A DNA stretch of 36,765 nucleotides from Anaerolineae bacterium (GCA_041082215.1 JBDOIF010000083.1:1-36765), one strand, 5' to 3'; positions 30-31,276 are shown, counted from the stretch's first letter. The notes: generated by a model not told the origin, from the sequence alone. Made by a program: numbers and translations.

Positions 30-3000
30 ATGGATAAGAAGAGACTCCTTTCCCTGCTGATTCTGGGAATCCTGCTGATAGGCCCTGCCCTCTCCTGCCG
101 CCCCCTTCTGGGACCCCGGGAGACGCCTACGCCAACCCGTGAATCCCTGCCCCCTACACACCCCCTCCTCCTCGAACGGTCCCCCGCCCGGGGGGAGGAA
201 GCGCCGCTGGACCGCTCCCTCATCCTCGTTTTCGATCAGCCGATGGACCCCGCCTCCGTGGAGGCGGCCTTTTCCATTGATCCACCGGTCGAGGGGACTT
301 TCTCCTGGCAGGACCCCGCCACGCTGGTCTTCACGCCGCTGTCTAACTGGGAGCGGGCCACCCGCTATCGGGTCCGGCTGGATACGACGGCCCGGTCGGC
401 CGATGGGCTGCCGTTGCGGGAGGAGACGGAGTTCACCTTTGCCACCGTCGGTTATCTGGAGGTGACTCAGGTCATCCCCGAACCGGGCATGACGGAGGTG
501 GAACCGACCGCCGCTGTCACGGTGATGTTCAATCGGCCTGTGGTGCCCCTCCAACTGGTCAGCGCCCCCTCGGCGGAGATGCCGACGCCCGTCCAGTTCG
601 ACCCGCCGGTGGAGGGGAGCGGGGAATGGATCAACACCTCAATCTACGTCTTTCGGCCTTCTACCGGCTTCATTCCCAGCCAGACCTACCGGGCCACCAT
701 CCAGGCCGGCCTCACCGATACGACTGGCGGCATCCTTCAGGAAAGTTTCTCCTGGGAGTTCACGATCCAATCCCCTTACGTCCTCCAGACCGTTCCCGCC
801 AGCGATGAGGGCCAGGTCCCGATCACCCGCCCCATCACCGTCACCTTCAGCCAGCCGATGGACCCCGCCTCGACTGAGGCCGCTTTCTCCCTCCGTACTG
901 AAGATGGGGAGGCGGTCCCCGGTCGCTTCTCCTGGGACGACGCGCACACGACGATGACGTTCTTCCCCGAAGGGCGGCTGGAGCTGGGAATCCGCTACGA
1001 GGCGACGGTCGCCGGGACCGCCCGCGCTGCCGTGGGCAACGCCACCCTGCGAGAAGCCTATAGCTGGCTTTTCTACACGGTTCCCTTCCCCTCCATCCTG
1101 AGGACGAATCCGCGCGATAGGACAACGGTTGATCCCTCAACCTCCTTTGATATCTACTTCTCGGCCCCGATGGACGTCGCTACGCTGATGCCGAACATCA
1201 CCATCCTCCCCGAACCCACCGGAGTCTATACCTGGTGGGACGAATATGAGAACCGCTTTTCTATAGTGTGGAACGTCGAGCCCTCGACCCCCTACGAGGT
1301 CCGCCTGGGAGGGGGAATGGCCGACCTCTACGGCAACACCATCGGCGAAGAGCAGGTTGTCCGCTTCACCACCACCCCTCTGAGCCCTATGGCCTATCTG
1401 GTCGCTCCGGGCAACATAGGGACTTACAACGCCTATACCCCCACCCAGATTTACCTGGCCCATCGGAATGTGACTCAGGTTGACCTGGCCCTCTACCGGC
1501 TGGACTGGGAGGATTTTGTTGACCTGACGGGGCCGAACCGGTGGGAGCTGTGGGATCGGTTCAACCCTGACCGCGAGGCGGAGCTAATGCGGAGCTGGAC
1601 CCTGACGCTTGAAGCGCCTCTGAACGAGATCCGCTACAAGCTGGTGGACCTGGCCGAGGATGGCGGCCCGCTGCCGCCCGGCCTCTACTTCCTGCAGGCC
1701 TCCGCCCCTGAGGTGCAGATCCTGGGAGAAAATCCATCCCGCCGGCTTCTGGTCGTCTCTCCCCTTCACGTCATGCTGAAGCTGGCCCAGCGGGAGGCGC
1801 TGGTCTGGGTGACCGATCTGATGACTGGCAGGCCGGTGGCCGGAGCGCCGGTGCTCATCCTGGGCCCCAATGGGCAGATGATCCGTCAGGGAACAACTGA
1901 CAGCGATGGCGTTTTCCGGGCCGAATTCCGTCCCCTGGAGGATCTGTGGGTTCCCTATACGGCCCGCGTCGGATCGCCGAGGGAGAGGGTGTTCGGCGTG
2001 GCGGTGAGCGACTGGTATGATGGGATCAGCCCCTGGGATTTCGACCTCTCCGCCGATTTCCTTCCTCCACCCTACCGGCTCTACCTGTACACCGAGCGCC
2101 CCATCTATCGGCCGGGCCAGCCGGTCTATTTCCGTGGTGTGATCCGCGCCGAAGACGACGTCCATTTCTCCCTCCCGCCCGCGATCCGCTCTGTCCCCAT
2201 CGCTGTCTACAACGATCAGGGGGAACAGATCTACAGCGATATCCTTCCCCTGTCCGACTTCGGCACGTTCAACGGCCAGTTTACCCTGGGGGAGGAGGCG
2301 GGCCTGGGATACTACTACATCGAGGCGAAGGTGAGCGGACAATCCCAGGGGGTGGGTTTCCAGGTGGCCGAATACCGGAGGCCGGAGTTCGAGGTGAGCG
2401 TCACCGCCGACAAAGAAGAGTATCTGACCGGCGAGCGGGTCAATGCCGTTGTCGAATCCACCTATTTCTTTGGGGGGCCTGTGGCCAATGCCTCTGTTCA
2501 CTGGACATTGCTGGCCCAGGACTATCCTTTCCGACCCGACGTGCCCGGCTGGTGGGACTGGAGCGACACCAGTAGCTGGGATTGGTGGCGACCCCCGGAG
2601 GTCCCGGGCTGGGGGCGGGTGGTCGCCGACGGAGATGGGACCACCGATAGCCGGGGCCGCTTTGTCTTCTCCGTCCCCGCCGATATATCCGAGTCGCAGC
2701 TCAGCCAGCTCTTCACCCTTGAGGCCACCATCACCGACATCAATGATCAGTCCGTCAGCAACCGCACCTCCTTCATTGTCCATAAGGGCCTCTTCTACAT
2801 CGGCCTTCAGCCTCAGCGGTATGTGGGACGGGTCGGCCAGGAGCAGACCGTCGAGGTCCGCACGGTGGACTGGGATGGAGAGCCGGTGGGGAATGTGCGG
2901 CTTGGCGTCACCTATATCCGGAGAGAGTGGCTCAACGTCCAGGAGGAGGATGAATACGGCAACCTCTACTGGACCTGGGTCCCCTCTGATACGGTCGTCT

Positions 3001-6140: not shown

Positions 6141-6214
6141 TGGGCGGTACAGGACTTGAACCTGTGACCTCCACGATGTCAACGTGGCGCTCTGGCCAAC
6201 TGAGCTAACCGCCC
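6141..6214 (-). tRNA. tRNA-Val(GAC), CCA not encoded
   Basis: Reverse complement GGGCGGTTAGCTCAGTTGGCCAGAGCGCCACGTTGACATCGTGGAGGTCACAGGTTCAAGTCCTGTACCGCCCA folds as a cloverleaf with anticodon stem CCACG/CGTGG, GAC anticodon and T-loop TTCAAGT. Confidence 0.97.
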
Positions 6215-15056: not shown

Positions 15057-15970
15057 TGTTCTGCCTCCACCACCCGCAGATAGACCGCTTCCAGGCTGCG
15101 GGGCACTTCGCTCAGGGTGACGACCGGGACTTTTGCCTGTGCCAGGGCCTGGAGGATGGGCGGGTTGACCGATTCCGGGTCCGGGGCTTCGTATCGCAGC
15201 CAGCCCGGCCCCCATTCCAGCGGGTGGGCGAAGCGGGAAACGATGGGCAACGCCCCGTCGGAGGTGGTCGCCAGCCGCAGCTCCATCACGGGGGGACCCA
15301 GGAGGCGCCGCTTCAGCTCGGCGGGAGTGCCCAGCGCCACGATCCGCCCGCGGCGGATGATGGCGATCCGATCCGCCACGATCTCCGCCTCCGCCAGGTT
15401 GTGGGTGCAGACCAGGATGGCTCGCTGTTCGTTGCGCATGGAGAGGATCGCATCCCGTACCAGCTTGGCGCTGTGGGGGTCCATCGCCGAAGTGGGCTCG
15501 TCCAGCAGCAGTACTGGCGGATCGTGCAGCAGCGTTCGGACCAGCGCCAGCTTCTGGCGCATCCCTTTGGAATACTCGCCGATCCGCCGGTCCCAGGCGT
15601 CCGGCATATCGAACTGCGCCAGGAGCCTGCGTGCCCGCTCCTGGCGGGTCTGCCGATCCAGCCCGTAGATGCGGCCGAAGAAGTCCAGGTACTCCCCGCC
15701 GCGCATCCGCAGGTAGAGGCCGGGGTGTTCGGTGAGCATCCCCACCCGCTGGCGGACGGCGATGGGGTCCTTCTGAGTGTCGAACCCGGCCACCACTGCT
15801 CGCCCCTCGGTGGGGGCCAGCAGGGCGGCCAGCATGCGCACCGTCGTCGTCTTACCGGCGCCGTTGGGGCCCAGGAGCGCGAGGATCTCGCCAGCGTTGA
15901 CCGAGAAGCTCACGCCGTCCACCGCCGTGAAGTCATCAAACCGCTTGACCAACCCTTCCAGATAGATCAT
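15053..15970 (-). CDS. ABC transporter ATP-binding protein
   Basis: [23 protein letters not shown] and CTH. Start MIYLEGL at the ATGA overlap with the kinase stop. Confidence 0.9.
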   Translation of the reverse strand: MIYLEGLVKRFDDFTAVDGVSFSVNAGEILALLGPNGAGKTTTVRMLAALLAPTEGRAVVAGFDTQKDPIAVRQRVGMLTEHPGLYLRMRGGEYLDFFGRIYGLDRQTRQERARRLLAQFDMPDAWDRRIGEYSKGMRQKLALVRTLLHDPPVLLLDEPTSAMDPHSAKLVRDAILSMRNEQRAILVCTHNLAEAEIVADRIAIIRRGRIVALGTPAELKRRLLGPPVMELRLATTSDGALPIVSRFAHPLEWGPGWLRYEAPDPESVNPPILQALAQAKVPVVTLSEVPRSLEAVYLRVVEAEQ

Positions 15971-18900
15971 GGCGCCTCGATCTTCCCTGACGTAGCTACC
16001 GGCATCGTGAAGGTGAAGGTGCTGCCTTTGCCCGGCTCGCTTTCCACCCAGATCTCCCCGCCCTGGAGTTCCACCAGGCTCTTGGTGATCACCAGCCCCA
16101 GGCCGGTGCCCGGGATGCTGCGGACCGCCGGGTTTTGGGAGCGGAAATACTTGGTAAACAGCCGGGCCTGCTCCTCCGGAGTCATGCCGATGCCGGTATC
16201 GGAGACGGAGCAACGGACGAAATGGCCGTTGTCGGCTTCTGCCAGGATGCGGATTCGCCCGCCCTCCGGTGTGTACTTGTAGGCGTTGCTGAGGAGATTG
16301 GTGAGGATCTGGACCAGCCGGTTGCGGTCGGCGGTTACGGGGGGGAGGGGGGAAGGGAGGTGCACTTCCAGCACCTGCTTCTTTGCCTCTACCTCCCCAC
16401 GGACCAGCTGCACGGCCTCCTCGACCGCTTCTTCCATCTTCACCAGCCCGATCTCCAGCTTCAACCGGCCCGCCTCGATGCGGGAAATATCCAGCAGGTC
16501 CTGCACCAGCGCGTTCATCCGCACTACATTGGAGCGGATCACCTCCAGGAAGGAGCGCTGCAGATCGTTCAGCTCCCCTGCTGCTCCGTTGAACAACAGG
16601 TCGGCGTATCCCTTAATAGAAGTCATCGGCTGTTTCAGTTCGTGGGAGACGAAGGAGATGAACTCTGTCTTGGCGTTGTTGGCTGCCTGGACCGCCTCGA
16701 ACAGCCGGGAGTTCTCGATGGCGATGGCGGCGTGGTCGGCCAGGCGGGTGACGAATTCCAGCGCCCCCTGGTCAAGCTGGCCCTGCTCCGACGACTCCAG
16801 GGCGATGACGCCGATGATCTCCGCCTCCCGGCGGATGGGCACGGTCAACTGGCTCACCATGCCTTCCACCACCGGCTCGTAGTCGGGATCGGACCGGACG
16901 TCCTCCACCAGCTCCGCCTTCCCTGTTCGCAGGGCCCGGCCGATCAGCCCTCGCTCGGCAGGCCACGGCTCTTTGCTGTGGGAGGAGATCAGCTCGTCGG
17001 GGTAGCCTTTGCTGGCCAGGAAACGGAGTCCTCGCGCCCCCTGCTCCGTCGTGACGACGATGGCCACAAGCCCCACATCGGCCCCTGTTGTCCGCAGGGC
17101 CCATTCAAGCGTGATTTCCATAACCCGGCGGTAATCAAGCGTGGCGTTCAGCTCCCGGTCAATGCGCTGCATCATCGAGAGTTCCTCCACCCGGGCGGCC
17201 AGCGCCTGGTCAGTCATCGTGAACAGCCGGGCGTTCTCGATGGCAATGGCAGCGTGGGAGGCAAAGGCGGTCAGCAGGTGGCGGTCCTCGGCGTTAAACG
17301 GGTTCCCGTCCTTCCGGTTCAGCAGTTCGATCACACCGATCACCCGGCCGTGGGCGATCATCGGCACACAGATGACCGAGCGGGTGATGAAACCGGAGCC
17401 GGCGTCCAGACCAGAGAACCACCGTCGGTCTTTCTGGACATCGTCCACGAGGATAGGGGTGGCTGTCTGAGCTACCCGGCCGACGATGCCGGTGCCCATC
17501 GGCAGACGGGTCCCTTCCAGGTCCGCCTTTCGCGGGCCGGTGACGACGTGGAACTCCAGATCGCCCCGCTCCTCATCCACCAGCAGAAGCGACCCGGCCT
17601 CTGCCTGCAGAAGCTCGATGGCCTTCTGCATGATCAGATGGAGCACCACGTCCAGTTCCAGGCTGGAGGTGATGACGCTGCCGACCTCGTTCAGCGCCTC
17701 CAGTTGTCGGGCGCGCCGTTCCATCAACTGATAGAGACGGGCCTTATCCAGGATGGCGGCGGCCTGATCGGCGATGGCGCGGAAAAGCTGAACCTGCTCT
17801 TCGGTATAGACCGTGTCGGGGTCGAAGCTGGAGACATTGATCACCCCCAGCACTCGATCCCGGGCGATGAGGGGCATGCCCATCCAGGCCTTCCCGGGCT
17901 TTCCGCCGGGCTGGACCCTTCGCCGCTGGCATTCAGCCAGATAGTCGTCGGTGACGATGGCCCGTCCGGTGCGGACGATGATGCTGGTCAACCCTTCTGT
18001 GTCCGACCAGACGTCGGTGGGGTAGCGGCGTTCCCCATCTTCCACGTAGAAGGCGAAGCGCAGGGTGTGGGCCTCGGGGTCGTAGAGGGCGATGTAGAAG
18101 TTGGAGACGTCCAGCAGCCGGGCCGCCTGGGCGTAGATCAGCTCCAGCAGGTCGTCCACCTGAACGGAGAAAGTGACCGACTGGGCGATCAGCCGGAGGA
18201 CTTCCATCTCTTCGATGCGCCGCTCCAGGGCCGTCACCAGCCGGACCCGTTCCAGGGCGGCGGCGATCTGGGGGGCCAGCAGTTCCAGGAAGCGGATGTC
18301 GGCGGCGCGGAACCGGTGCCCACGGGTCGGCCCCAGGGTCAACCACCCCTGACCGACGAGGGGGACGAAGAGGGATGGCCCCAATTGTGCCAGCCGTTCC
18401 CGCTCCGGCTCCAGCTCCTGTGGCAGTTCTCTTTCGACGGAGAGGAAGATCGGCCGGGCGTCGGTCGTCAGACGGCGGGCCAGCGGCCGGTCGGGGCGGA
18501 AGCGGACCGTGGTGGGAGGGTTGCCTGTGACCGAATGGGGTACATACCATCCCGCCCGTTTGTCCATCAGATAGAGCAGCCCATATCGGGGGGCCAGGGC
18601 CCGTTCCAGCGTCTGGCCGATAGCTCTCAACACCGTCTCTTCCGACCGGGCCGTTGCCACTTCCTGGGCGAATATCTGCAGCGCCTGTTCGGGCGCCATC
18701 CGCCGGCCCAGTACCAGCCGGTCCACCAGCCGTTCCAATCCCACCCGGACGGGCTGGATACCCAGGGCCACCAGCAGGCCGAAGAGGGCCAGCAGGATGG
18801 GGTGGAAGGGGGAGAGGGTGGGGTAGAAAGCCCGTCCGATCATCACGAGAAGGAGGTACAGGCCGATGACCCCGGCTGCCACCAGGGCACGGGGGACAGC

Positions 18901-19965
18901 ACGGCGCACCAGCCCGTCCACATCCAGCGAGCGGCGGCGCAGGAGGGCGTAGGCGATCGAGAGCGGGAACAGCACCGTCCAGGGCAGGATCAGCAGGGGG
19001 GAGAAGGGGATGGAGAGCGGACGGGTAGTCAGCACCCACATCACGTAGGGGCCGAATCCCAGGAGCGTTCCCAGAAGGATAGTGCGTGCCTGGGAGCGGA
19101 TGACCGGGGAGATGGAGAGGAACCGCCGCGCCAGCATCGAAGCGAAAAGCCCCAGAGCGCCCAGCCCGGCCCACACCATCCCCCAGAACCACGGGTCAAA
19201 ATAAGCCGTGGGGGCATTCCAGCGCGTCGTCGCCGCCACCGCCACCACCCCAATCGCCACCCCCGGCAGATAGACCAGGAGCGGGAGCCAGCGGGCGCGA
19301 CGGAGCGGGCCGATCCGTTCGGGGAAGACCATAGCCAGATGCAGGCCCAGGCTTCCGGCGAGGGGAAGACAGAACACCCAGCCCCACCAGAGCAGGTGGG
19401 TGGTCAGAAGGTCGAAAAAGAGCCCGCCGATCAGCGAGAAGGCGGCGCAGAGAAGGGCGAAGACCGGCGTTCCCTCCTCGCGGGGGGCGGAGCGAAGGAC
19501 CCATACCCCGATGGTGAAGAAGGACCACCCCAGAAGGGTGGGAAGGACGAAGAAATTGAGGGTTGTGCTCGCTGGCATCGCAGCCAGGCGAACGCGGACC
19601 CCGGCCTGTTCCCCGGTGGATGGGTCCTGCACCGTGATCCCGATTTCGTCCCCCACCTGGTGAGCAGAGAGGAGGGAGATCAGGGCGGTGGGGCTTTGCA
19701 ACGGCTGGCCGTCTACGGCAATCACCCGGTGGGGGAAACGCAGCGCTGTCTGTTGGTCGGGCCAGGCCGGGTCCCTCATCTCGGTGATGATGAGGGTAGG
19801 TTCGGCGAAGAAGCCCGGGAAGGGTAAGGCTGCTGCTCGCAACCCGGCGATAGCGGCAAAGAGGAGGGCAGCAGCCGCCGCCAGCAGGAAAAACGGCACG
19901 ATGAAACGAACCGGGCCGGTCTGGTGGCGCTCTTCCGCAGCCGGTGGGGGTTGTTTTGTGCTCAT
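15967..19965 (-). CDS. Membrane sensor histidine kinase (PDZ-like, multi-TM, about 4 GAF, HisKA, HATPase)
   Basis: PDZ-like RVIAVDGQP, a run of hydrophobic helices, GAF repeats ending AAIAIENARL, H-box SHELKQP, N-box NLLSNAYKY, DTGIG and GTGLGL. Start taken at MSTKQ. Confidence 0.9.
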   Translation of the reverse strand: MSTKQPPPAAEERHQTGPVRFIVPFFLLAAAAALLFAAIAGLRAAALPFPGFFAEPTLIITEMRDPAWPDQQTALRFPHRVIAVDGQPLQSPTALISLLSAHQVGDEIGITVQDPSTGEQAGVRVRLAAMPASTTLNFFVLPTLLGWSFFTIGVWVLRSAPREEGTPVFALLCAAFSLIGGLFFDLLTTHLLWWGWVFCLPLAGSLGLHLAMVFPERIGPLRRARWLPLLVYLPGVAIGVVAVAATTRWNAPTAYFDPWFWGMVWAGLGALGLFASMLARRFLSISPVIRSQARTILLGTLLGFGPYVMWVLTTRPLSIPFSPLLILPWTVLFPLSIAYALLRRRSLDVDGLVRRAVPRALVAAGVIGLYLLLVMIGRAFYPTLSPFHPILLALFGLLVALGIQPVRVGLERLVDRLVLGRRMAPEQALQIFAQEVATARSEETVLRAIGQTLERALAPRYGLLYLMDKRAGWYVPHSVTGNPPTTVRFRPDRPLARRLTTDARPIFLSVERELPQELEPERERLAQLGPSLFVPLVGQGWLTLGPTRGHRFRAADIRFLELLAPQIAAALERVRLVTALERRIEEMEVLRLIAQSVTFSVQVDDLLELIYAQAARLLDVSNFYIALYDPEAHTLRFAFYVEDGERRYPTDVWSDTEGLTSIIVRTGRAIVTDDYLAECQRRRVQPGGKPGKAWMGMPLIARDRVLGVINVSSFDPDTVYTEEQVQLFRAIADQAAAILDKARLYQLMERRARQLEALNEVGSVITSSLELDVVLHLIMQKAIELLQAEAGSLLLVDEERGDLEFHVVTGPRKADLEGTRLPMGTGIVGRVAQTATPILVDDVQKDRRWFSGLDAGSGFITRSVICVPMIAHGRVIGVIELLNRKDGNPFNAEDRHLLTAFASHAAIAIENARLFTMTDQALAARVEELSMMQRIDRELNATLDYRRVMEITLEWALRTTGADVGLVAIVVTTEQGARGLRFLASKGYPDELISSHSKEPWPAERGLIGRALRTGKAELVEDVRSDPDYEPVVEGMVSQLTVPIRREAEIIGVIALESSEQGQLDQGALEFVTRLADHAAIAIENSRLFEAVQAANNAKTEFISFVSHELKQPMTSIKGYADLLFNGAAGELNDLQRSFLEVIRSNVVRMNALVQDLLDISRIEAGRLKLEIGLVKMEEAVEEAVQLVRGEVEAKKQVLEVHLPSPLPPVTADRNRLVQILTNLLSNAYKYTPEGGRIRILAEADNGHFVRCSVSDTGIGMTPEEQARLFTKYFRSQNPAVRSIPGTGLGLVITKSLVELQGGEIWVESEPGKGSTFTFTMPVATSGKIEAP

Positions 19966-20088
19966 ACTCACCCCGGGGCGATGCGCAGCAGCAATCTTCC
20001 CTCTCAATATTTTAGCATGTTCCGGACAAAAGTCCACCCCTTCCGGTGTCGGTGAGGTTACAGTTTGATAAAGGGGGGACCGGGGGGT

Positions 20089-20721: not shown

Positions 20722-21714
20722 TTACCCTTCTCCATACACTTCCGGATTGGCACAGTAGGGCAGCCGCTCCCCGGATAGCCCTGCCAGCAGGTTTTCGGCC
20801 GCCATCTCTGCCATCCGGTCCCGCGCTGAGATGGTGGCGCTGGCGATGTGGGGGACGACGATGCAGTTGGGCAGCTCCAGCAGGGGATGGTCTGGTGGGA
20901 GAGGTTCCGGGTCGGTCACGTCCAGCGCAGCGGCCCGGATCCAGCCTTCGCGCAGGGCCACCAGCAGCGCGTCTGTATCCACCACCGGCCCCCGTGCAGT
21001 GTTGATCAGGACCGCCGTCGGTTTCATCCGCCGCAGGGTTGCTTCGTTGATCAGGTGGCGGGTCTCGGCGGTCAGCGGGCAGTGGAGGGAGACGAAGTCG
21101 GACTGGGCCAGGAGCTGATCCAGCCCCACATACTCCGCCCCCACCTCCGCCGCCGCGTCCGGCCGGGGAGCGCGGTCGTGGTAGAGGAGCCGCATGGTAA
21201 AGCCCCGGGCGCGGCGGGCCACCGCCGTACCGATGCGGCCCAGGCCGATGATCCCCAGCGTCGCCCCCCAGATGTCGGTGCCCAGCAGGCCCAGCGGCTC
21301 CCATGTGTGCCACCGTCCTGCCCTGACCTTTTCGATCCCCTCCGGGATGCGGCGGGCCGCGGCCATCAGCAGGGCGAAGGCCATATCGGCGGTGGCCTCG
21401 GTGAGCACCCCCGGCGTGTGGCCGACGGGGATCCCCCGTGCGGTCGCTGCTGCCAGGTCAATGTTGTCCACCCCCACAGCGAACTGGCTGATGACGCGGA
21501 GGCCGCTTCCGGCGGCGATGACCTCCGCATCAATGGGGTCGGTCAGCAGGCAGAGCAGGCCGTCGCAATTCACCACTTCCTGGAGGATCGTCTCCTTTGG
21601 GGGAGGAAGCTCCTGGTCCCACAGTCGCACCGTGCAACGCTCTCGCACCCGCCGGAGTCCGGCCTCCGGGATGCGGCGGGTGACGAAGACAACCGGTTGG
21701 GTTGCATCAGCCAT
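20722..21714 (-). CDS. D-2-hydroxyacid dehydrogenase (glyoxylate reductase / D-glycerate dehydrogenase)
   Basis: [39 protein letters not shown] and PHIASA; RBS AAGGAGGAG. Confidence 0.9.
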
Positions 21715-21859: not shown

Positions 21860-21888
21860 TTGACACCGGCAAGGTAACGGGGTATAAT
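21860..21888 (+). promoter_or_regulatory. Consensus sigma70 promoter upstream of the riboswitch
   Basis: TTGACA (21860-65), 17-nt spacer, TATAAT (21883-88): an exact consensus match. Confidence 0.9.
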
Positions 21889-21906
21889 CAAACTGGACAA
21901 GCAAGC

Positions 21907-21953
21907 CAGGTGATGAGGCTCACCTGAACCGCCATTTTGGCTGATGGCCTCTA
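21907..21953 (+). ncRNA. Fluoride riboswitch (crcB motif) aptamer
   Basis: CAGGTGATGAGGCTCACCTG-AACC-GCCATTTTGGC-TGATG-GCCTCTA. First stem CAGGTGA/TCACCTG, small hairpin GCCA/TGGC, pseudoknot GAGGC (21915-19) with GCCTC (21947-51). Matches the pattern GGYGATGRnGYYCRCC..AACCGC..GCTGATGRCnYCTA. Confidence 0.92.
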
Positions 21954-21984
21954 TGGAGAGTAGTTTCTCCATAGAGGCTTTTTT
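21947..21984 (+). terminator. Riboswitch expression platform: intrinsic terminator
   Basis: 13-bp perfect stem GCCTCTATGGAGA/TCTCCATAGAGGC, loop GTAGTT, then TTTTTT. The 5' arm is the aptamer pseudoknot strand. Confidence 0.92.
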
Positions 21985-22010
21985 CCTTAAGGGAATAGAA
22001 CAAAAGGAAA

Positions 22011-23549
22011 ATGAACGGTTTTGCAACAATCAGTATTCTTTTCGATAGAGACAACTCCCGGCCGGAAACAATCGGACAGCCCGATTGTTTTGCCGATCTC
22101 AATCTGGATCAGATCATTCGCGCCCTTACCGAGTCCAGGCAGGAATACAACCTCACCCCCTTCTTCTACACACCTTTGCGTGATCCAGAAACGGTGCGCT
22201 ACAGACAGGAAGTGATGCAGGATTTGGAAGAGGAAGCCGTCATAAAGCAGGTTAAGGCTTTTGCGGAAAAAATGGTTATTGTCCGCCGTTACCTTGCTCT
22301 GGCAGAGAAGCTGGACTTTGCGTATCACCGGGAAGGGTGGATTCTGGAGGGAGCCCTGGTCTACTGTGAGGCCATAACGACCCTCGCTCAATATTTAGCT
22401 GCTGCTCCCCTGAAGTCGCGTGGCCTGCTAGCATTTCGAGGCTACCTGATGCGCTACGTCTCGTCGCCAGCTTTCCAATCCCTGATGGGCGAGGCGCAGC
22501 AGGTGAAGCAAGCCCTGGCCGAGATCCGGTACGCTGTGATTATCGAGAGCGGCGAGTTCAGCGTCAGGAAGTATGAAGGCGAGACGGATTACAGCGTGGA
22601 AGTGGAGAGGACCTTTGAGAAATTTAAACAAGCCGATGCCACGGACTATGCGGTGCGCGTTCCGGAAAGCAACGGGATGAGTCACATCGAAGCCAAGATT
22701 CTGGAATTCGTCGCCAAGCTATTTCCGGAACCCTTCGCAGCCCTGGATCGCTTCTGTGCCCGACACGTTCCCTTCATCGCTCCCACCATTGGGGCTTTTG
22801 ACCGGGAAGTGCAATTTTACGTTGCCTACCTGGATTTCATCGCCGACCTCAAACGTCAGGGGTTGCCTTTCTGCTATCCCGAAGTCAGTGCCACAAGCAA
22901 GGAAGTTTACCTGCGCGATGGCTTTGACCTGGCCCTGGCCCATAGCCGGCGTTATAGCCAACAGCCTCTCGTGTTTAATGACTTCTTCCTCCGCGACCCG
23001 GAGCGCATCCTGGTGGTCACGGGGCCGAATCAGGGAGGAAAGACCACCTTCGCCCGGATGTTTGGACAGGTGCACTACCTGGCCAGCCTCGGGTGTCCCA
23101 TTCCAGGCCGGTCAGCACGCATGCTCCTTTTCGACCAAATTTTTATGCATTTCGAGCGTGTTGAAGATGTTCGTAGTCTGCGCGGCAAGCTGGAAGACGA
23201 CCTGGTCCGCCTGCATGCCATGCTCGCTTGTGCCACCCCTCACAGCATCTTCATCCTGAACGAAGTTTTCACCTCTACAACCGTTCAGGACGCCCTCTTC
23301 CTGAGCCAGGAGATCATAGCGCACCTGACCGCTCTCGATGCGTTGGTGGTGTGGGTCACATTCTTGGACGAGCTGGCTTCGTTGAACGAGAAGACAGTTA
23401 GCATGGTGGCCCAGGTTGACCCTCGGGATCCTGCGGTGCGCACCTTCAAGGTCGTGCGTCAGCCTGCCGACGGGCTGGCTTACGCTCTCTCGTTAGCCCG
23501 GAAACACGGGCTAACCTCCACGCAACTTGAGGAGCGACTGTCTCGATGA
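22011..23549 (+). CDS. Short MutS-family ATPase (MutS4-like), first subunit
   Basis: 512 aa with C-terminal MutS domain V: VTGPNQGGKTT, DQIFMHF, GKLEDDL, ILNEVFTST. No mismatch-binding or Smr domain recognisable. RBS AAAGGA. Confidence 0.85.
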   Translation: MNGFATISILFDRDNSRPETIGQPDCFADLNLDQIIRALTESRQEYNLTPFFYTPLRDPETVRYRQEVMQDLEEEAVIKQVKAFAEKMVIVRRYLALAEKLDFAYHREGWILEGALVYCEAITTLAQYLAAAPLKSRGLLAFRGYLMRYVSSPAFQSLMGEAQQVKQALAEIRYAVIIESGEFSVRKYEGETDYSVEVERTFEKFKQADATDYAVRVPESNGMSHIEAKILEFVAKLFPEPFAALDRFCARHVPFIAPTIGAFDREVQFYVAYLDFIADLKRQGLPFCYPEVSATSKEVYLRDGFDLALAHSRRYSQQPLVFNDFFLRDPERILVVTGPNQGGKTTFARMFGQVHYLASLGCPIPGRSARMLLFDQIFMHFERVEDVRSLRGKLEDDLVRLHAMLACATPHSIFILNEVFTSTTVQDALFLSQEIIAHLTALDALVVWVTFLDELASLNEKTVSMVAQVDPRDPAVRTFKVVRQPADGLAYALSLARKHGLTSTQLEERLSR

Positions 23550-25069
23550 AAGTGTTTTTGCTCTACCCCGACCGGGATTTTGATCCATCACAGCCGTTGC
23601 TTCCCCACAGCCAAGATCTGGTACAAGATCTGGGGCTCGATATTTTGTTCCAGGCTATGGCCCGAGGCGACGAGTTCATGTTCCAGGTGGCACGGCAGGT
23701 CGTCTTGTCCGGCGATCAAGACATTGCCACTATCCTTTACCGCCAGGCGATCCTGAAAGACTGCATCCAGCACCCTGAGGTTGTCAGGGAGATCTATCAG
23801 ATTCCCCTGGAATTCCTCGATCGCAAGCGCAGGCAGTGGTTATGGATCCCATCGCGCCATTCCAGCCCCAGTTCCATCCTCAACGGTGCCCGGCAGCTCC
23901 TGGAAGCCTCTCTGGACCTGCTGCGCCGGCTGCGCCAAATTGCCGACCAATATGCCGGGGCCTTTGCTTCGCAGGGCTTTCGTCGGTTCTTCACCATGGT
24001 CCAAGAGGAGCTAGACGACGAGTACTTGCAGCAGGCAGCACAACATGTTCGGATGCTCCGTTTCCCCTCCGGCGCATTGCTCAGAGCGCGTCTGGGAAAG
24101 GGAAATGGAGGGACAGATTATGTGCTCTGCAGGCCCGATAGCGCAAGCCGGACTTGGCTTCAACGCTTCTTCACCTTCCGTTCACCCTCCTACTCCTATC
24201 GCTTGCATCCCCGCGATGACGCTGGGGCGCGTATTTTGGGCGAGTTGCGCGACAGAGGACTCGCCCGGACGGCCAACGCCGTGGCCCAGGCCGCCGAACA
24301 CGTGGAGAGTTTCTTCAACGTGTTGCGCCGGGAGCTGGCGTTCTTTATGGGATGTCTGAACCTGTATGAGCAATTGACCCTGTTGGGTGAGCCTGTGACT
24401 TTTCCACAGCCGGCATCCGCCGACGCCTGTCGGTTCTCATCCAGGGGGTTGTACGATGTCACCCTGGCGCTGACGATGGGCAGGCGCGTTGTAGAAAACG
24501 ATGTCTCCGCCAACGGGAAATCGCTGGTGCTGATCACCGGCCCCAACCAGGGCGGTAAGACTACGTTTCTGCGCAGTCTCGGCCTGGCTCAGTTGATGAT
24601 GCAGAGCGGTATGTTCGTTCCAGCCGAACGTTTCTCGGCCAGTGTGTGCACAGGCCTTTTCACCCATTTCAAGCGGGAAGAGGACAAGACCATGGAGAGC
24701 GGCAAGTTCGAAGAGGAGCTCAGGCGCATAAGCAGCATAGTTGACCAGATCGGCCCGAACGCAGTGCTCCTGTTCAACGAGTCCTTTGCGGCCACCAATG
24801 AGCGTGAAGGGTCAGAGATCGCCTGGCAGATCACCCATTCGTTGCTTGAACACGGCATCAGGATATTTTACGTCACCCATCTCTACGAGTACGCTCGCCG
24901 CTGCTACGAAAGGGAGGGGAAAAGATGCCTTTTCTTGCGTGCGGAGAGGTTACCGGACGGCACACGGACTTTCAGGCTCAGGGAAGCCAAACCGATGGGG
25001 ACAAGCTACGGGATGGACCTGTATCATAGAATATTCGGCGTTGAACAGCAGCGGAGCATAGCCGGATGA
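23546..25069 (+). CDS. Short MutS-family ATPase (MutS4-like), second subunit
   Basis: 507 aa with ITGPNQGGKTTFLRS, QLMMQSGMFVPA, FTHF, SGKFEEEL, LFNESFAATN and VTH. ATGA overlap with the upstream paralog. Confidence 0.85.
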   Translation: MKVFLLYPDRDFDPSQPLLPHSQDLVQDLGLDILFQAMARGDEFMFQVARQVVLSGDQDIATILYRQAILKDCIQHPEVVREIYQIPLEFLDRKRRQWLWIPSRHSSPSSILNGARQLLEASLDLLRRLRQIADQYAGAFASQGFRRFFTMVQEELDDEYLQQAAQHVRMLRFPSGALLRARLGKGNGGTDYVLCRPDSASRTWLQRFFTFRSPSYSYRLHPRDDAGARILGELRDRGLARTANAVAQAAEHVESFFNVLRRELAFFMGCLNLYEQLTLLGEPVTFPQPASADACRFSSRGLYDVTLALTMGRRVVENDVSANGKSLVLITGPNQGGKTTFLRSLGLAQLMMQSGMFVPAERFSASVCTGLFTHFKREEDKTMESGKFEEELRRISSIVDQIGPNAVLLFNESFAATNEREGSEIAWQITHSLLEHGIRIFYVTHLYEYARRCYEREGKRCLFLRAERLPDGTRTFRLREAKPMGTSYGMDLYHRIFGVEQQRSIAG

Positions 25070-25097: not shown

Positions 25098-26360
25098 CTA
25101 TATCGTTGTCCCGTCGGGGATAACGGCGTTCTTGGGAATGACGACGATCCCGTCACGGATCACGTAGTTCTCCTCCTCCCGGTCCGGCTCTCCCTCGTGG
25201 GAGCGGATGATGACTCCCTGGCCGATGCGGGCGTTCTTGTCTATAATCGCCCGTTCGATGATGGTGTTGGAGCCGATCCCTACATGGGGGCGACCCAGCC
25301 GTCGGTTTTCTGTCTTCTGCACCGCATCTTCGTAGTAGTCGGCGCCGAGCAGCACAACCTGCCGGAGATGGGCGCCCGGCCGCACAATGCTCCGCAGGCC
25401 GATGACGCACTCCTCCAGCTCCGCGTCGTACAGCCAGCATCCATCTGCCAGCACCACCCGCTCCAGGCGACAGCCATCCACCCGCGAGGCGGGAAGGAAC
25501 CTGGGCCGGGTGTAGATCGGCCGGGCAGGGTCGTAAAAGTCGAAGGGAGGGTTGGGCTGGGTGAGGGCCAGGTTGGCTTTGTAGAAGGCGGCGATCGTCC
25601 CAATGTCCTCCCAGTATCCGTCAAAGGGGAAGGCATAGACCCGTAAAGACTGGATAGCGGCGGGGATGATCTCTCTGCCGAAATCGTCTCCGGGCGTTTC
25701 CTCCAGCAGGCGGGTCATCAAATCCAGACGGAAGACATAGATGCCCATCGAGGCAAGGTAGGGGCGGGCGCTGTCGCCTGTAGGGCTTTGTAGCCCTTCC
25801 AGCTCCTGCGGGGTCTGGGGCTTCTCCCGGAATTCAACGATGCGCCCATCCCCGTCGGTCTTGAGGATGCCGTAACGGGGCGCGTCTTCCTCCGGGATGG
25901 GGAGGGCGGCGATGGTGGCATCCGCCCGCTTCTCGCGGTGGAAGGCGATGAACTCCTGGTAGTCCATCCGATACAGGTGGTCGCCGGCCAGGATCAGCAC
26001 GTCCTCCGGCGCACGGCTGAGGAACCGGTGCAACTGGCGACGGACCGCGTCGGCTGTCCCCTGATACCAGTCGGCGCGGGTCAGCGTCTGCTCGGCCGGC
26101 AGGATCTCCACAAACCCGTCGGAAAACACGTCGAACTTGTAGGTCTGGTAGACGTGGCGGTGGAGGGAGGCGGAGAGGAACTGGGTGAGGATGAAGATGC
26201 GGGTGATGCCGGAGTTGATGCAGTTGGAGAGGGGGATGTCTATCAGCCGGTACTTGCCGGCCAGAGGGACGGCGGGCTTGGCCCGCAGCTTCGTCAGAGG
26301 GTAGAGGCGGGTCCCCCGGCCTCCCCCCAGGACGACGGCCAGGACGTCTTTCTGCGGCAT
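25098..26360 (-). CDS. glgC: Glucose-1-phosphate adenylyltransferase
   Basis: LGGGRGTRLYPLTKLRAKPAVP, WYQGTADAV, GDHLYRMDY, EKP, ASMGIY, YWEDIGT and a C-terminal beta-helix. Confidence 0.96.
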   Translation of the reverse strand: MPQKDVLAVVLGGGRGTRLYPLTKLRAKPAVPLAGKYRLIDIPLSNCINSGITRIFILTQFLSASLHRHVYQTYKFDVFSDGFVEILPAEQTLTRADWYQGTADAVRRQLHRFLSRAPEDVLILAGDHLYRMDYQEFIAFHREKRADATIAALPIPEEDAPRYGILKTDGDGRIVEFREKPQTPQELEGLQSPTGDSARPYLASMGIYVFRLDLMTRLLEETPGDDFGREIIPAAIQSLRVYAFPFDGYWEDIGTIAAFYKANLALTQPNPPFDFYDPARPIYTRPRFLPASRVDGCRLERVVLADGCWLYDAELEECVIGLRSIVRPGAHLRQVVLLGADYYEDAVQKTENRRLGRPHVGIGSNTIIERAIIDKNARIGQGVIIRSHEGEPDREEENYVIRDGIVVIPKNAVIPDGTTI

Positions 26361-27905: not shown

Positions 27906-28040
27906 ACTCTCAGGCCCGGCCCACACCGGGGCGGAGCGAGATGGACAGAAAGGAGGTGGTCGGCAAAGAACGGGCAAATCGGAACGGGTTGGCGTAGAAT
28001 CCACAATCCCCGATCAGTTTTTTCGGTAAGGAGGAGAAGG

Positions 28041-29195
28041 ATGACCAGAAAGCTTGTGCCGGCATTGCTCGTCGTCGTCCTGCTTGCCTCTCTGTTCACC
28101 GGGTGCAAGAAAGAGGCAGGCACGATCAAGATCGGCCTGGAAGGGCCGCTGACGGGCGACTACGCATACGAAGGGCAGGGCTTCGAGAAGGCGGTCCGCC
28201 TGCTGGTGGATCAGGTCAACGAGCAGGGTGGGTTGCTGGGCCGCCAGGTGGAGCTGATCGTCGAGGATGATGCGGGCGACCCGACCCAGGCGGCGCTGGT
28301 GGCGCAGCGGCTGGTGGACGCCGGGGTGATCGCCGTGATCGGGGCCTACAACTCCACCGCTACCGAGCCGGCCTCCGAAATCTACAACGAGGCTGGCATC
28401 CTCCACATCACCCCCTCTTCCACCGCCACGCGCCTCACCGAGAAGGGCTTTCAGCGCTTCTTCCGCGTCTGCTTCCTCGATGACCGGCAGGGCCTGTTTG
28501 CGGCAAAGTTCATGAAGGAGATCCTGGGCGCCCAGAACATCGGCATCCTCCACGACAACTCCACCTACGCCCAGGGGCTGGCCGAGCACACCAAGCGGTA
28601 CGCGGAGGAGTTGGGGCTGAACGTTGTCTTCTACGATGCCATCAACCCCGACGACACCGATTTCACGCCCACTCTGACCAACATCGCGGGGGCGCATCCG
28701 GATGCGGTCTACTTCACCGGCTACCATCCGCAGGGCGGCCTCCTGCTCAAGCAGAGCGGTGAGCTGGGGCTGGACCTCCAGTGGGTGATGGGCAACGCCT
28801 GCAACAACCCGGAGCTGATCCAGATTGCCGGCCTGGAGAACGCCGTCGGCACCTACGTGACCACGGAGCCGCTTCCCAAGGACCTGGATTATCCGGAGGC
28901 GAGGGAGTACGTCGCGGCCTTCGAGGCGAAGTACGGCGAGCCGGTGGCCAGCGTCTGGTGGCTGATGGCCGCCGAGGCCTTCAACGTGATCCGCTACGCC
29001 ATCGAACAGACCCAGTCCACCGACCCGGCCGTGCTGGCCGAGTTCCTCCACACCAGGGCCAAGGACATCCCCGGCCTCACCGGCCCGATCCTGGGCTGGG
29101 ATGAGAAGGGAGACCGGCTGGGCACGATCCACGTCGCCTACGTCATTGACGAGAACGGCAACTTCACCCTCAACCCCGAACAGCCATCGCCGTAA
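28041..29195 (+). CDS. livK: HAAT (Liv-type) ABC substrate-binding lipoprotein
   Basis: Lipobox FTGC, IKIGLEGPLTG, VEDDAGDP and VIGAYNS; RBS AAGGAGG. Actual substrate is not determinable from sequence. Confidence 0.88.
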   Translation: MTRKLVPALLVVVLLASLFTGCKKEAGTIKIGLEGPLTGDYAYEGQGFEKAVRLLVDQVNEQGGLLGRQVELIVEDDAGDPTQAALVAQRLVDAGVIAVIGAYNSTATEPASEIYNEAGILHITPSSTATRLTEKGFQRFFRVCFLDDRQGLFAAKFMKEILGAQNIGILHDNSTYAQGLAEHTKRYAEELGLNVVFYDAINPDDTDFTPTLTNIAGAHPDAVYFTGYHPQGGLLLKQSGELGLDLQWVMGNACNNPELIQIAGLENAVGTYVTTEPLPKDLDYPEAREYVAAFEAKYGEPVASVWWLMAAEAFNVIRYAIEQTQSTDPAVLAEFLHTRAKDIPGLTGPILGWDEKGDRLGTIHVAYVIDENGNFTLNPEQPSP

Positions 29196-29207
29196 ACCTG
29201 CCTGTCC

Positions 29208-29244
29208 GCGCGGGGGGAGTCCGGTCCCCGGGCCCCCCCCGCGC
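29208..29244 (+). terminator. GC-rich stem-loop after the binding-protein gene (partial terminator or mRNA stabiliser)
   Basis: GCGCGGGGGG...CCCCCCGCGC with a weak T tail. Confidence 0.55.
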
Positions 29245-29271
29245 ACGTTTATGAGGTGCGGTACGTTGGCG

Positions 29272-29329
29272 ACCGCAGAAAACGCAAAAAGTGCAAAAAT
29301 TCTTGCCCCACCTTTGCGCCCTTTGTGGT
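29272..29329. repeat. Degenerate palindromic element, family A copy 2 (AT-rich variant)
   Basis: ACCGCAGAAAACGCAAAAAGTGCAAAAA...CTTTGCGCCCTTTGTGGT, with the same ACCRC...TGTGGT termini and about 9-nt period. Confidence 0.5.
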
Positions 29330-29359
29330 CTCTCTTAACGGCTGTGGAGGTTTGACCCG

Positions 29360-30265
29360 ATGCAGTTTCTCCAGCAGCTCATCAACGGGGTGACGATTGG
29401 CGCGTTCTATGCGCTGGTCGCCCTGGGATACACGATGGTCTACGGCGTCCTGAAGCTGATCAACTTTGCCCACGGCGACCTGTTTATGTGGGGGGCTTAC
29501 CTGGGGCTGACAGGGCTGAACGTCATCCTGGCTGCGATCGCCAGGACAACCCCCTGGGCAATCCTGCCGACCGTGATCATGGTGATGGCGACGGTCGCGC
29601 TGGTCGGAGTGCTGGTGGAGCGGGTGGCGTATCGTCCGCTCCGCACGGCAGGGCGGCTGGCCCCGGTGATCTCCGCCCTGGGGGTGGCCTTCATCCTGGA
29701 GAGCCTGGCCCGCAATATCTACGGAGCCAGCTGGAAAACCTATCCGGCCGGTATCACCCCCGGCGGCGGGCTGGTCCTCTCGGGGGGGGTCCGCGTCGGC
29801 GTTATGCAGATCATCGTGCTGGCCGTCTCCTTCCTCCTGATGGCCGGGCTGTACCTCTTCGTCCACCGCACCCGTATCGGCACCGCGATGCGGGCCGTCT
29901 CCCTGGATCACAACGTCTCCCGGCTGATGGGGATTGATGTGGACCGGATCATCATGGTTGTCTTTCTCATCGGACCCGGCCTGGGGGGCGTGGCGGGGAT
30001 GATCGTGGCCCTTTATTACGGCTCGTTCGACTTCACGCTGGGATGGGTCTTCGGCCTGAAGGCCTTCATCGCCGCCATTCTGGGAGGGATCGGCAACATC
30101 CCCGGCGCGATGGTGGGAGGGATGCTCCTGGGGATCATCGAGACGCTGGGGGCGGGCTATATCTCGCCTCAGTGGAAGGACGTCATCGCCTATGTGATCC
30201 TGATCCTGATCCTCATCTTCCGCCCCACCGGACTGCTCGGCGAGCGGGTGGCGGAAAAGCTGTAG
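29360..30265 (+). CDS. livH: HAAT ABC permease
   Basis: YALVALGYTMVYGVLKLINFAHG and KAFIAAILGGIGNIPGA. Confidence 0.92.
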   Translation: MQFLQQLINGVTIGAFYALVALGYTMVYGVLKLINFAHGDLFMWGAYLGLTGLNVILAAIARTTPWAILPTVIMVMATVALVGVLVERVAYRPLRTAGRLAPVISALGVAFILESLARNIYGASWKTYPAGITPGGGLVLSGGVRVGVMQIIVLAVSFLLMAGLYLFVHRTRIGTAMRAVSLDHNVSRLMGIDVDRIIMVVFLIGPGLGGVAGMIVALYYGSFDFTLGWVFGLKAFIAAILGGIGNIPGAMVGGMLLGIIETLGAGYISPQWKDVIAYVILILILIFRPTGLLGERVAEKL

Positions 30266-30274
30266 GGGGATGAG

Positions 30275-31276
30275 ATGATGACCGCGTTGCGTGAACGTCT
30301 CCGGACCATCCGACCCCTCTGGTGGCAGTTGGGCCTGCTTGGGCTGGCCCTCCTGCTCCCCCTCCCGATGGGCGACTACTACCGCTCGGTACTCTGGCGG
30401 ACGGCCCTCTATATCATCCTGGGTCTCAGCCTGAACGTTATCGTCGGCTATGCGGGGCTTTTCCAGCTCGGGCACGCGGCTTTCTACGCCCTGGGAGCGT
30501 ACACTACCGCTTTGCTCAATCTCCATTGGGGGATCCCGATCCTGTTAACCTTCCCGATCAGCATCCTCGTCGCGGCTTTCTTCGGTTATCTGATCACGCG
30601 GCCGATCCTCCACCTGCGGGGCGACTATCTCTGTATCGTCACCATCGCCTTCGGCGAGGTGGTGCGGCTGGCGCTGGTCAACAACATCTTCGGCATCACC
30701 GGCGGGGCCAACGGGCTGAGCGGCATCGCCCGGCCGGTCCTCTTTGGTTTTGCTATCCGTGAGCCGATCTATCATTACTATATGGTGCTTCTCTTCCTGG
30801 TTTTCACCATCTTCGCCGTCCGTCGTCTGGAGAACTCCCGCCTGGGCCGGGCGTGGATGTACGTCCGTGAGGATGAGGTCGCCGCCGAGGCGATGGGGAT
30901 AGACACCACGCGGGTGAAGCTTCTGGCCTTCGTCATCGGCTCGGGCTGGGCAGGGCTGGCCGGTTCCCTCTACGCGGCCAAGATCACGGTCGTCTCGCCG
31001 GACCAGGCGAAGTTTCTGGAGTCGGTGGTCATGTTCTGCATCGTCGTCCTGGGCGGCACCGGCTCCATCCCCGGCGTCTTCGTCGGCACGCTGGGGATGG
31101 TCACCCTGCCGGAGCTCTCCCGCGCCCTGAAGGAGTGGCGGGATGCGTGGCTGGGGCTGGCGATGGTGACGATGATGATCGCCCGTCCGGAGGGGCTCTG
31201 GCCCAGCCGACGGATCCGGATGGAGATTCGGGCAGCCCAAGAGGAGGCGCTGGCCGCCCCCGCTTCCGGCGATTGA
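30275..31276 (+). CDS. livM: HAAT ABC permease
   Basis: [26 protein letters not shown] and SRLGRAW..VREDE. Confidence 0.92.

Follow-up and report, generated by a model that had tools for sequence, protein, structure and literature searches.

A fluoride riboswitch ahead of a MutS4-like ATPase gene pair in an Anaerolineae bacterium without a detected fluoride exporter

Why would a bacterium place genes named for DNA mismatch repair under a switch that senses fluoride? Since 2010 (Weinberg et al., PMC2864571), lists of the genes that follow fluoride riboswitches have included some annotated as mutS, and an explanation has been lacking. The question is raised again by a cassette at positions 21860-25069 (+) of a 36,765-nt stretch of DNA from an Anaerolineae bacterium (JBDOIF010000083.1:1-36765), referred to here as the window, which belongs to a 3.53-Mb assembly of 174 contigs that is 96.1% complete. 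In this cassette a fluoride riboswitch precedes two genes, mutS4A and mutS4B, that encode MutS-like ATPases. A first-pass annotation of the window had correctly stated that MutS-annotated genes occur behind such riboswitches and had put the locus forward as a candidate uncharacterised fluoride-response system. As the link between the crcB motif and mutS was already in print in 2010, the locus is not a new system but a further case of an already known, unexplained association between the riboswitch and MutS4 genes.

The regulatory part of the cassette is as well supported as sequence evidence allows. A sigma-70-type promoter at 21860-21888 (+), TTGACA-17 nt-TATAAT, agrees with the consensus at 12 of 12 positions, in a leader region that holds five promoter-like sites where shuffled sequences hold 1.0 on average. 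It is followed at 21900-21960 (+) by a fluoride riboswitch aptamer (crcB motif, RF01734), which matches the Rfam covariance model over its entire length (positions 1-64 of 64) with 47.1 bits (E 3.5e-10; gathering score 34 bits) and scores 54.5 bits with R1, a covariance model of our own described below. This aptamer is the one RF01734 match in the window and also the one match in the whole assembly. Both of its helices are paired in the cmscan alignment to RF01734, and a candidate pseudoknot, found by eye and lying outside the covariance model, joins GAGGC (21915-21919) in the first aptamer loop to GCCUC (21947-21951) through five Watson-Crick pairs, at the pseudoknot position of the class. 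The second of these arms lies within the 5' arm of an intrinsic terminator at 21946-21985 (+), which consists of a 15-bp stem (21946-21979), a 4-nt loop and a T run, and whose stem covers the final 15 nt of the aptamer. Since the pseudoknot arm is inside the terminator 5' arm, ligand binding and termination should be mutually exclusive, which is the logic of an ON switch. The leader folds with -41 kcal/mol (z -4.7), a stability reached in 0 of 200 shuffles. Its sole blemish is the putative ribosome-binding site, a purine-rich tract read directly from the sequence (AAAAGGAAA, 22002-22010 (+)), in which AGGA (22005-22008) lies just 2 nt from the ATG of mutS4A, a start that is backed by the N-termini of orthologues. 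The consensus promoter, the aptamer, the overlapping terminator and the ON-type logic that had been assigned to this leader are thus all borne out, and the ribosome-binding site in part, the tract being present and its spacing short. Such a leader suggests that the genes behind it are induced by fluoride in this organism.

Two open reading frames (ORFs) follow, mutS4A at 22011-23549 (+), of 512 aa, and mutS4B at 23546-25069 (+), of 507 aa. The stop of the first and the start of the second overlap by 4 nt in an ATGA, and Pfam recognises MutS_V alone in each, at the C-terminal end, so that the initial description of two ATGA-coupled MutS-domain-V proteins of about 510 aa is accurate. The neighbouring genes face the other way, with a divergent 2-hydroxyacid dehydrogenase gene (20722-21714 (-)) on the upstream flank and a convergent glgC (25098-26360 (-)) on the downstream flank. 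These are the bounds given by the first-pass annotation, and from their orientation it follows, as it had argued, that the regulated transcript holds mutS4A and mutS4B alone. The genome separately encodes two full-length MutS genes (open frames of 882 and 888 aa) and MutS2.

Public records name proteins of this kind "DNA mismatch repair protein MutS" or "MutS-related protein", yet the pair fits a more specific group. The MutS4A/MutS4B subfamily was named in 2007 by Lin, Nei and Ma (PMC2190696), who described as its signature the presence of the ATPase domain only, encoded by adjacent genes in which the A stop overlaps the B start, found it in bacteria and archaea, and did not study its function. 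A search of species-representative genomes with MutS4B returned 198 confirmed relatives, and the best 80 of the 198 were kept as loci; these 80 share 48-83% identity with the query and come from many phyla, as well as from two archaeal metagenome-assembled genomes (MAGs), with phylum names taken from record titles and general taxonomy. In 77 of the 80 the B-type gene has an A-type gene immediately before it, and about 54 of those 77 show the 4-nt overlap by hand count. Bit scores among the 80 loci are 500-940 within a type and 56-105 for A against B, and the homology of A and B is full-length (hhalign E 6e-40, columns 19-494 against 17-488). In a FastTree phylogeny of ATPase domains (14 of 70 A, 14 of 79 B, 13 of 26 MutS2 and two MutS1 sequences), A and B come out as sister clades distinct from MutS2 and MutS1; support is 0.998 for A, 0.846 for B and 0.994 for the two together. 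The family is very large, with at least 8000 clusters scoring E ≤1e-20. Homologues from Thermoanaerobacterium, which we take to be related to one species listed in the 2007 MutS4 paper, share 52-53% identity. The window pair fits MutS4A/MutS4B by its ATPase-only domain content, its overlapping genes and its two separate clades, which is the identity first suggested for it.

Do these proteins belong to mismatch repair at all? All our statements on the structure of A and B come from predicted models, which score a predicted local distance difference test (pLDDT) of 89.1 and a predicted template modelling score (pTM) of 0.86 for A, and 87.2 and 0.86 for B. Each model comprises long core and lever helices, a small beta hairpin at the place of the clamp (A 174-187, B 178-195) and an ABC ATPase. 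Residues 23-497 of A overlay with the Thermus MutS2 core (7vuk_B, 1-472; Z 28.5, 3.0 Å, 356 aligned), 23-499 with E. coli MutS (1wbd_B, 268-776; Z 27.4, 3.9 Å, 374 aligned) and 23-511 with B. subtilis MutS2 on the disome (7qv3_v, 2-507; Z 27.7, 4.3 Å, 408 aligned). B behaves alike, with 21-486 on the disome-bound MutS2 (7qv3_w, 1-489; Z 27.9, 4.4 Å, 368 aligned), 15-486 on E. coli MutS (3zlj_B, 261-770; Z 28.4, 4.8 Å, 383 aligned) and nearly the whole chain on 7vuk_B (Z 28.4). The models match E. coli MutS from about residue 260-270 onward, that is, over MutS domains III to V. Pfam gave no match to MutS_I or MutS_II in either protein, and none to KOW or Smr, the chains stopping just after the ATPase and the C-terminal helices.

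The identity of the N-terminal part is settled only by these predicted folds. Against a MutS2 profile of 26 sequences (61 genomes were scanned, among them G158, which was excluded from the profile), the E-values of the N-terminal 290 or so residues were 0.16 and 0.27, and those of the reversed controls 0.28 and 0.36. A weak Pfam MutS_III match was seen in 10 of 70 A sequences, at best with E 0.023, and for B that family fell outside the top 25. Aligned by hhalign to a single MutS2, the proteins matched in the ATPase domain alone, and an Atlas search of the region yielded, besides clusters without a name, a MutS_III lead at 0.83. Park et al. (PMC10897456) reasoned from the missing domains I and II that MutS2 is no mismatch-repair protein, and the same reasoning applies to A and B. 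On sequence and predicted fold, MutS4A/B are not mismatch-repair enzymes, a view that the first-pass annotation had also taken and that the separate full-length MutS and MutS2 genes of this genome support. Predicted fold and domain content together argue against the label "DNA mismatch repair protein MutS".

The ATP sites set the pair apart more sharply (residue counts are from orthologue sets of 70 A and 79 B). Walker A, GPNQGGKTT in the window's A, is invariant in A and B orthologues and present in this genome's MutS and MutS2. At Walker B, where those two proteins have Asp-Glu, the pair has Asn-Glu (Asn417-Glu418 in A, Asn411-Glu412 in B), a replacement found in 70/70 A and 78/79 B. The signature-like motif reads G-K-L/F, with Lys in all 70 A and all 79 B, against S-T-F in this genome's MutS and MutS2. 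The histidine of the T-H motif, present in both of those, is kept in B (His445, 78/79) and is Phe in A (Phe451, 70/70). From this difference between the subunits it follows that the two composite sites would be built differently, as in many heterodimeric ABC proteins.

For the Walker B change a comparison is offered by E. coli MutS, in which Asp693 coordinates water molecules of the catalytic Mg (Lebbink et al. 2010, PMC2857095). In the D693N mutant of that protein (3k0s) the metal pocket is empty with ADP bound, high-affinity ATP binding is lost, the ATPase is higher and uncoupled, and repair in vivo is poor (PMC2857095). D693N is an engineered mutant, whereas the MutS4 Asn is natural, near-invariant in both subunits and accompanied by other changes of the site. 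A MutS site can hold ADP-metal-fluoride, as 1nne, by its title, is a solved MutS-ADP-BeF3-DNA complex. By analogy, a natural Asn may hold Mg loosely and so make the MutS4 sites harder for metal fluorides to trap.

That A and B act together is suggested by several features of the family. Their divergence is correlated (r 0.85, reached in 0 of 1000 label permutations), although the adjacency of the genes would give this anyway. The 23 homologues that measure 905-1112 aa include 21 in which a single chain runs from an A half into a B half, and these fusions keep the asymmetry, reading V-T-F in the A half of 18/21 and V-T/S-H in the B half of 20/21. Eight of them form one clade and lie on several contigs of up to 1.5 Mb, so that the fusions are not all assembly errors. 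Fixed gene order, coupled translation, co-divergence and fusion all point to an A:B heterodimer, and the heterodimeric ATPase of the first-pass annotation thereby gains support of an indirect kind.

How firmly is the pair tied to fluoride outside this genome? A hand-written riboswitch pattern proved too strict, matching only 18 of the 80 loci, and was replaced by R1, built from 22 aptamers, and by whole-genome Rfam searches. R1 was searched in the 80 loci on the same strand and within 450 nt upstream of A; nine loci ended at a contig end or lacked an A gene, which leaves 71 evaluable. A riboswitch lies directly upstream of A in 45 of these 71, across many phyla, a count to be read with the fact that the R1 seeds were drawn from the same loci. 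Among the other 26, a riboswitch on the same strand stands 0.8-2.3 kb upstream in seven (L013, L020, L027, L036, L042, L066 and L068), and the ORFs in the gap share that strand, which fits longer operons; one further locus is ambiguous and one has a weak direct match. For the first 40 loci, R1 matches were mapped by hand to those of Rfam; 20/20 coincided, 15/20 of them above the gathering score. Of the 80 carrier genomes, 77 contain one or more fluoride riboswitches (38/40 and 39/40 in the two batches).

The surroundings of the pair point the same way. Enolase is encoded nearby at 19 of the 80 loci, DUF190 and Usp at 11 each, CrcB and a Na/H exchanger at nine each and His_Phos_1 at seven; enolase, CrcB, DUF190, Usp and the exchanger are typical fluoride-regulon genes. 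Weinberg et al. (PMC2864571) listed mutS among the targets of the crcB motif and, because terminators overlapped the motif, predicted ON switches; mutS is not mentioned in the available text supplements of that paper. Our literature search for fluoride or the crcB motif together with MutS or mismatch repair found that one relevant match and no paper on the function of riboswitch-linked MutS. The association extends over many phyla and both domains. Baker et al. (2012, Science) reportedly list mutS as well.

Export was examined as well. As the first-pass annotation had stated, there is no CrcB or CLC gene in the window, and the whole assembly yielded no CrcB with either the Pfam model or a CrcB protein query from a same-family relative, and no CLC of any kind with the Pfam model, which cannot separate fluoride-specific CLCs from others. 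Among 41 genomes of the window's order, this one included, CrcB was found in one, CLC in 20, a fluoride riboswitch in nine and MutS4B in three, and in all three MutS4 carriers the riboswitch lies beside the pair and both exporter families are missing. In the same order (G081-G120), riboswitch and CLC were on different contigs in 3/3 genomes where both were mapped. The 80 carriers present a mixed picture. CrcB is present in 53 of them, for which reason we rejected the idea that the pair is a general substitute for an exporter; of the other 27, 18 have CLC and nine have neither. The nine include four Chloroflexota MAGs, with L002, L004 and L005 representing three of the window's four closest relatives. 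Carriers without an exporter thus recur as a minority (9/80, together with this genome and G114); all of them are MAGs with no stated completeness, which leaves the absence unproven.

Tentatively, and with less than even confidence, we put forward the view that the pair is a fluoride-induced, asymmetric A:B clamp ATPase that acts on a stalled, nucleic-acid-bound target and has fluoride-hardened sites. The proposal sets out from what is observed, namely the switch anatomy, the operon, the predicted fold, the motifs and the conserved association, and adds to it, as conjectures, fluoride induction in this organism, the heterodimer, the target and the hardening. At low fluoride, transcripts from the promoter at 21860 would stop at the terminator at 21946-21985. 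In the fluoride-bound aptamer, the pseudoknot would hold the 5' arm of the terminator, allowing RNA polymerase to read into mutS4A-mutS4B, with B translated by coupling at the ATGA overlap. A and B would then assemble as an obligate asymmetric heterodimer with two composite ATP sites, both of which would carry Asn for the Mg-holding Walker B Asp, with the switch His in B only. This ATP-gated clamp could act on a nucleic-acid-bound target stalled under fluoride stress, its Mg-loose sites keeping it running while ADP-metal-fluoride jams ordinary P-loop NTPases. The action suggested by the first-pass annotation, a clearing of metal-fluoride-trapped nucleotide, enzyme or nucleic-acid complexes, is likewise conjectural. 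A bolder form would make MutS4A/B the sole inducible fluoride defence of exporter-less Chloroflexota, with sites that ADP-metal-fluoride cannot freeze and an ATP-driven dislodging of locked P-loop NTPases or nucleoprotein complexes, so that tolerance would come from cytoplasmic repair and not from export; this we consider improbable.

Several observations weigh against the clamp proposal. A riboswitch is not directly upstream of A in 26 of 71 loci and at about 19 none is in reach, and CrcB is present in 53 of 80 carriers. The Asn characterises the whole family, loci without a riboswitch included, and is therefore not tied to the switch. The E. coli D693N protein, though defective in repair, still hydrolyses ATP with Mg (PMC2857095), so an Asn is no sign of chemistry without metal. 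Both proteins have an N-terminal region of net negative charge (median -9 in A, -3 in B) and, in the models, a clamp tip cut down to a hairpin, each of which mildly disfavours broad DNA binding. The one experimental MutS4 paper (PMC5742357) describes an effect on recombination and contains, in its available text, 0 occurrences of fluoride or riboswitch. Finally, the folds are predictions, and the assembly is 96% complete.

Among the rival explanations, a role in DNA recombination or repair is the closest at hand, though we hold it to be rather doubtful. The pair would bind branched or damaged DNA like MutS2-type cores, under DNA damage or replication stalling caused by fluoride. Weinberg et al. 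(PMC2864571) suggested a DNA-damaging stress, and Kim et al. 2017 (PMC5742357) reported that homologous recombination is raised in M. smegmatis with a mycobacterial MutS4 operon, in a study whose available text draws no link to fluoride. The predicted fold, equivalent to MutS domains III to V, would suit such a factor, but no nuclease, mismatch-binding or MutL-connector domain is present, and the acidic N-terminal regions and reduced clamp speak against it. We also know of no established fluoride-caused DNA lesion in bacteria, which counts against this account. The superposition of both models on ribosome-bound MutS2 (7qv3; Z 27.7 for A, 27.9 for B) raises instead the prospect of ribosome rescue, in which the pair, like B. 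subtilis MutS2, an ABC ATPase that splits stalled ribosomes (PMC10897456), would split ribosomes stalled by fluoride-trapped translational GTPases. A and B lack the KOW and SMR domains that recruit MutS2, however, and no ribosomal gene recurs beside the pair in the 80 loci; we regard this role as unlikely.

Another possibility is that the substrate is a protein, the ATPase prying metal-fluoride or fluoride-phosphate complexes from enzymes such as enolase, much as the annotation of KamC, a MutS-domain protein, has it reactivate lysine 5,6-aminomutase. The KamC model, of similar size with 508 positions, matches A with 43.1 bits and B with 70.8 bits, and enolase and His_Phos_1 are encoded near the pair at 19 and seven of the 80 loci. 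These scores are far below the NCBIfam cut-off of 300 bits and no better than those for MutS and MutS2, the full lever-and-clamp architecture is kept, and the enzymes encoded nearby belong to the fluoride regulon at large and are not specific partners, all of which makes a reactivase or chaperone quite improbable. The pair might, lastly, give no protection from fluoride, being a mobile cassette that merely carries the riboswitch or one that uses fluoride as a cue, for example for induced genome change. Identity of about 50% across many phyla and two domains does point to frequent transfer (Lin et al. 2007, PMC2190696), and some 19 of 71 loci lack a riboswitch in reach. We nevertheless think this very unlikely, given the association kept across many phyla and both domains, the position of the pair in fluoride islands among known tolerance genes, and defence-model matches at P-loop level only. 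A reading of the pair as anti-phage defence was likewise rejected, the best PADLOC match being to mad8 with E 3e-4 along about 40 residues that surround the P-loop. For the clamp proposal, a DNA target is favoured by family history and the one recombination report; a ribosome target would have a structural precedent with its recruiting domains missing, and the analogy with KamC is weak.

Several side observations on the relatives extend the picture of the fluoride response. A dynamin-family GTPase (Dynamin_N, E 1.5e-23, L077:1-1146 (-)) adjoins the MutS4 pair at 18 of the 80 loci. In a sister genus of the window's, a fluoride riboswitch stands before an ORF of about 198 aa without annotation, which overlaps with a DUF6062 ORF in a second frame (L083:1034-2555 (+); L082:1174-2193 (+)), and in a protein of 1100 aa (P0130) a DUF6062 region is fused to MutS4A, which ties another unknown family to the same response. 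DUF6062 had no match in this genome, and control genomes likewise gave none, which makes this negative a weak one. Three recurrent neighbour clusters, at 14, 11 and 11 of the 80 loci, are without a Pfam match at E 0.001 (examples are L055:6445-7677 (-), L075:7712-8341 (-) and L072:8585-8977 (+)). In an Allopusillimonas isolate (G040, L041) the single fluoride riboswitch precedes the MutS4 pair, and CrcB is on another contig with no riboswitch detected there. Some carriers are rich in riboswitches, with 17 matches in G068, 14 in G045, 13 in G051 and 12 in G064 (loci L069, L046, L052 and L065), often grouped into fluoride islands that span a few tens of kb.

The window itself holds a few further features. 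Near the operon lies a gene for a 1356-aa histidine kinase (15967-20037 (-)) in which four stretches match GAF and the N-terminus gives a weak HisKA_7TM match below the cut-off. Two adjoining ORFs of 410 and 425 aa (28014-29246 (-) and 29249-30526 (-)) have no Pfam family at E 0.01, an ORF of 1984 aa spans 30-5984 (+), and a tRNA gene (71.2 bits) is located at 6141-6214 (-).

The value of the locus lies in its being a minimal test case and in the active-site hypotheses it offers. It is about the cleanest natural case of the association, with an operon of the pair only, the single fluoride riboswitch of its genome, and a lineage in which neither CrcB nor CLC was detected. The Asn in both subunits, the loss of His in A only and the natural A-B fusions lead to specific, testable hypotheses. 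If it is true that the pair protects without export, this would be a second principle of fluoride tolerance.

Although MutS4A/B share individual features with several characterised families, they are distinct from each. Canonical MutS1 has domain I, the connector domain II and an Asp-Glu Walker B; the pair has neither domain, and Asn-Glu instead. The closest likeness is to the MutS2 core (7vuk/7vuf, 7qv3), with which the predicted folds share the core and lever, the position of the clamp, the ABC ATPase and the absence of domains I and II. MutS2 carries in addition C-terminal KOW and Smr domains, has D-E at Walker B and STF where MutS4 has N-E and GK[L/F], and bears no significant sequence similarity to the N-terminal 290 residues of MutS4. 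It has been seen as a homodimer on collided ribosomes in B. subtilis (PMC10897456), in contrast to the heterodimer of two paralogues that we propose for MutS4. KamC (NF052383) resembles the pair in length, at about 508 aa, and in its MutS-type ATPase, and is annotated to act on an enzyme and not on DNA; the pair differs from it in scoring far under its 300-bit cut-off and in having no aminomutase context at the locus. With MutS4A/MutS4B as described in 2007 (PMC2190696), the window pair has in common the ATPase domain as sole recognised part, the overlapping A and B genes, the two clades, the presence in bacteria and archaea and the patchy distribution. The available text of the two MutS4 papers (PMC2190696, PMC5742357) mentions neither fluoride nor riboswitches, and control by a fluoride riboswitch is the feature here. 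The switch in turn conforms to the fluoride riboswitch regulon (PMC2864571) in its aptamer, overlapping terminator and ON logic, and mutS targets were listed for that regulon in 2010. What distinguishes it is its cargo, for described fluoride riboswitches mostly control exporters and fluoride-sensitive enzymes, whereas here the sole cargo is the MutS4 pair.

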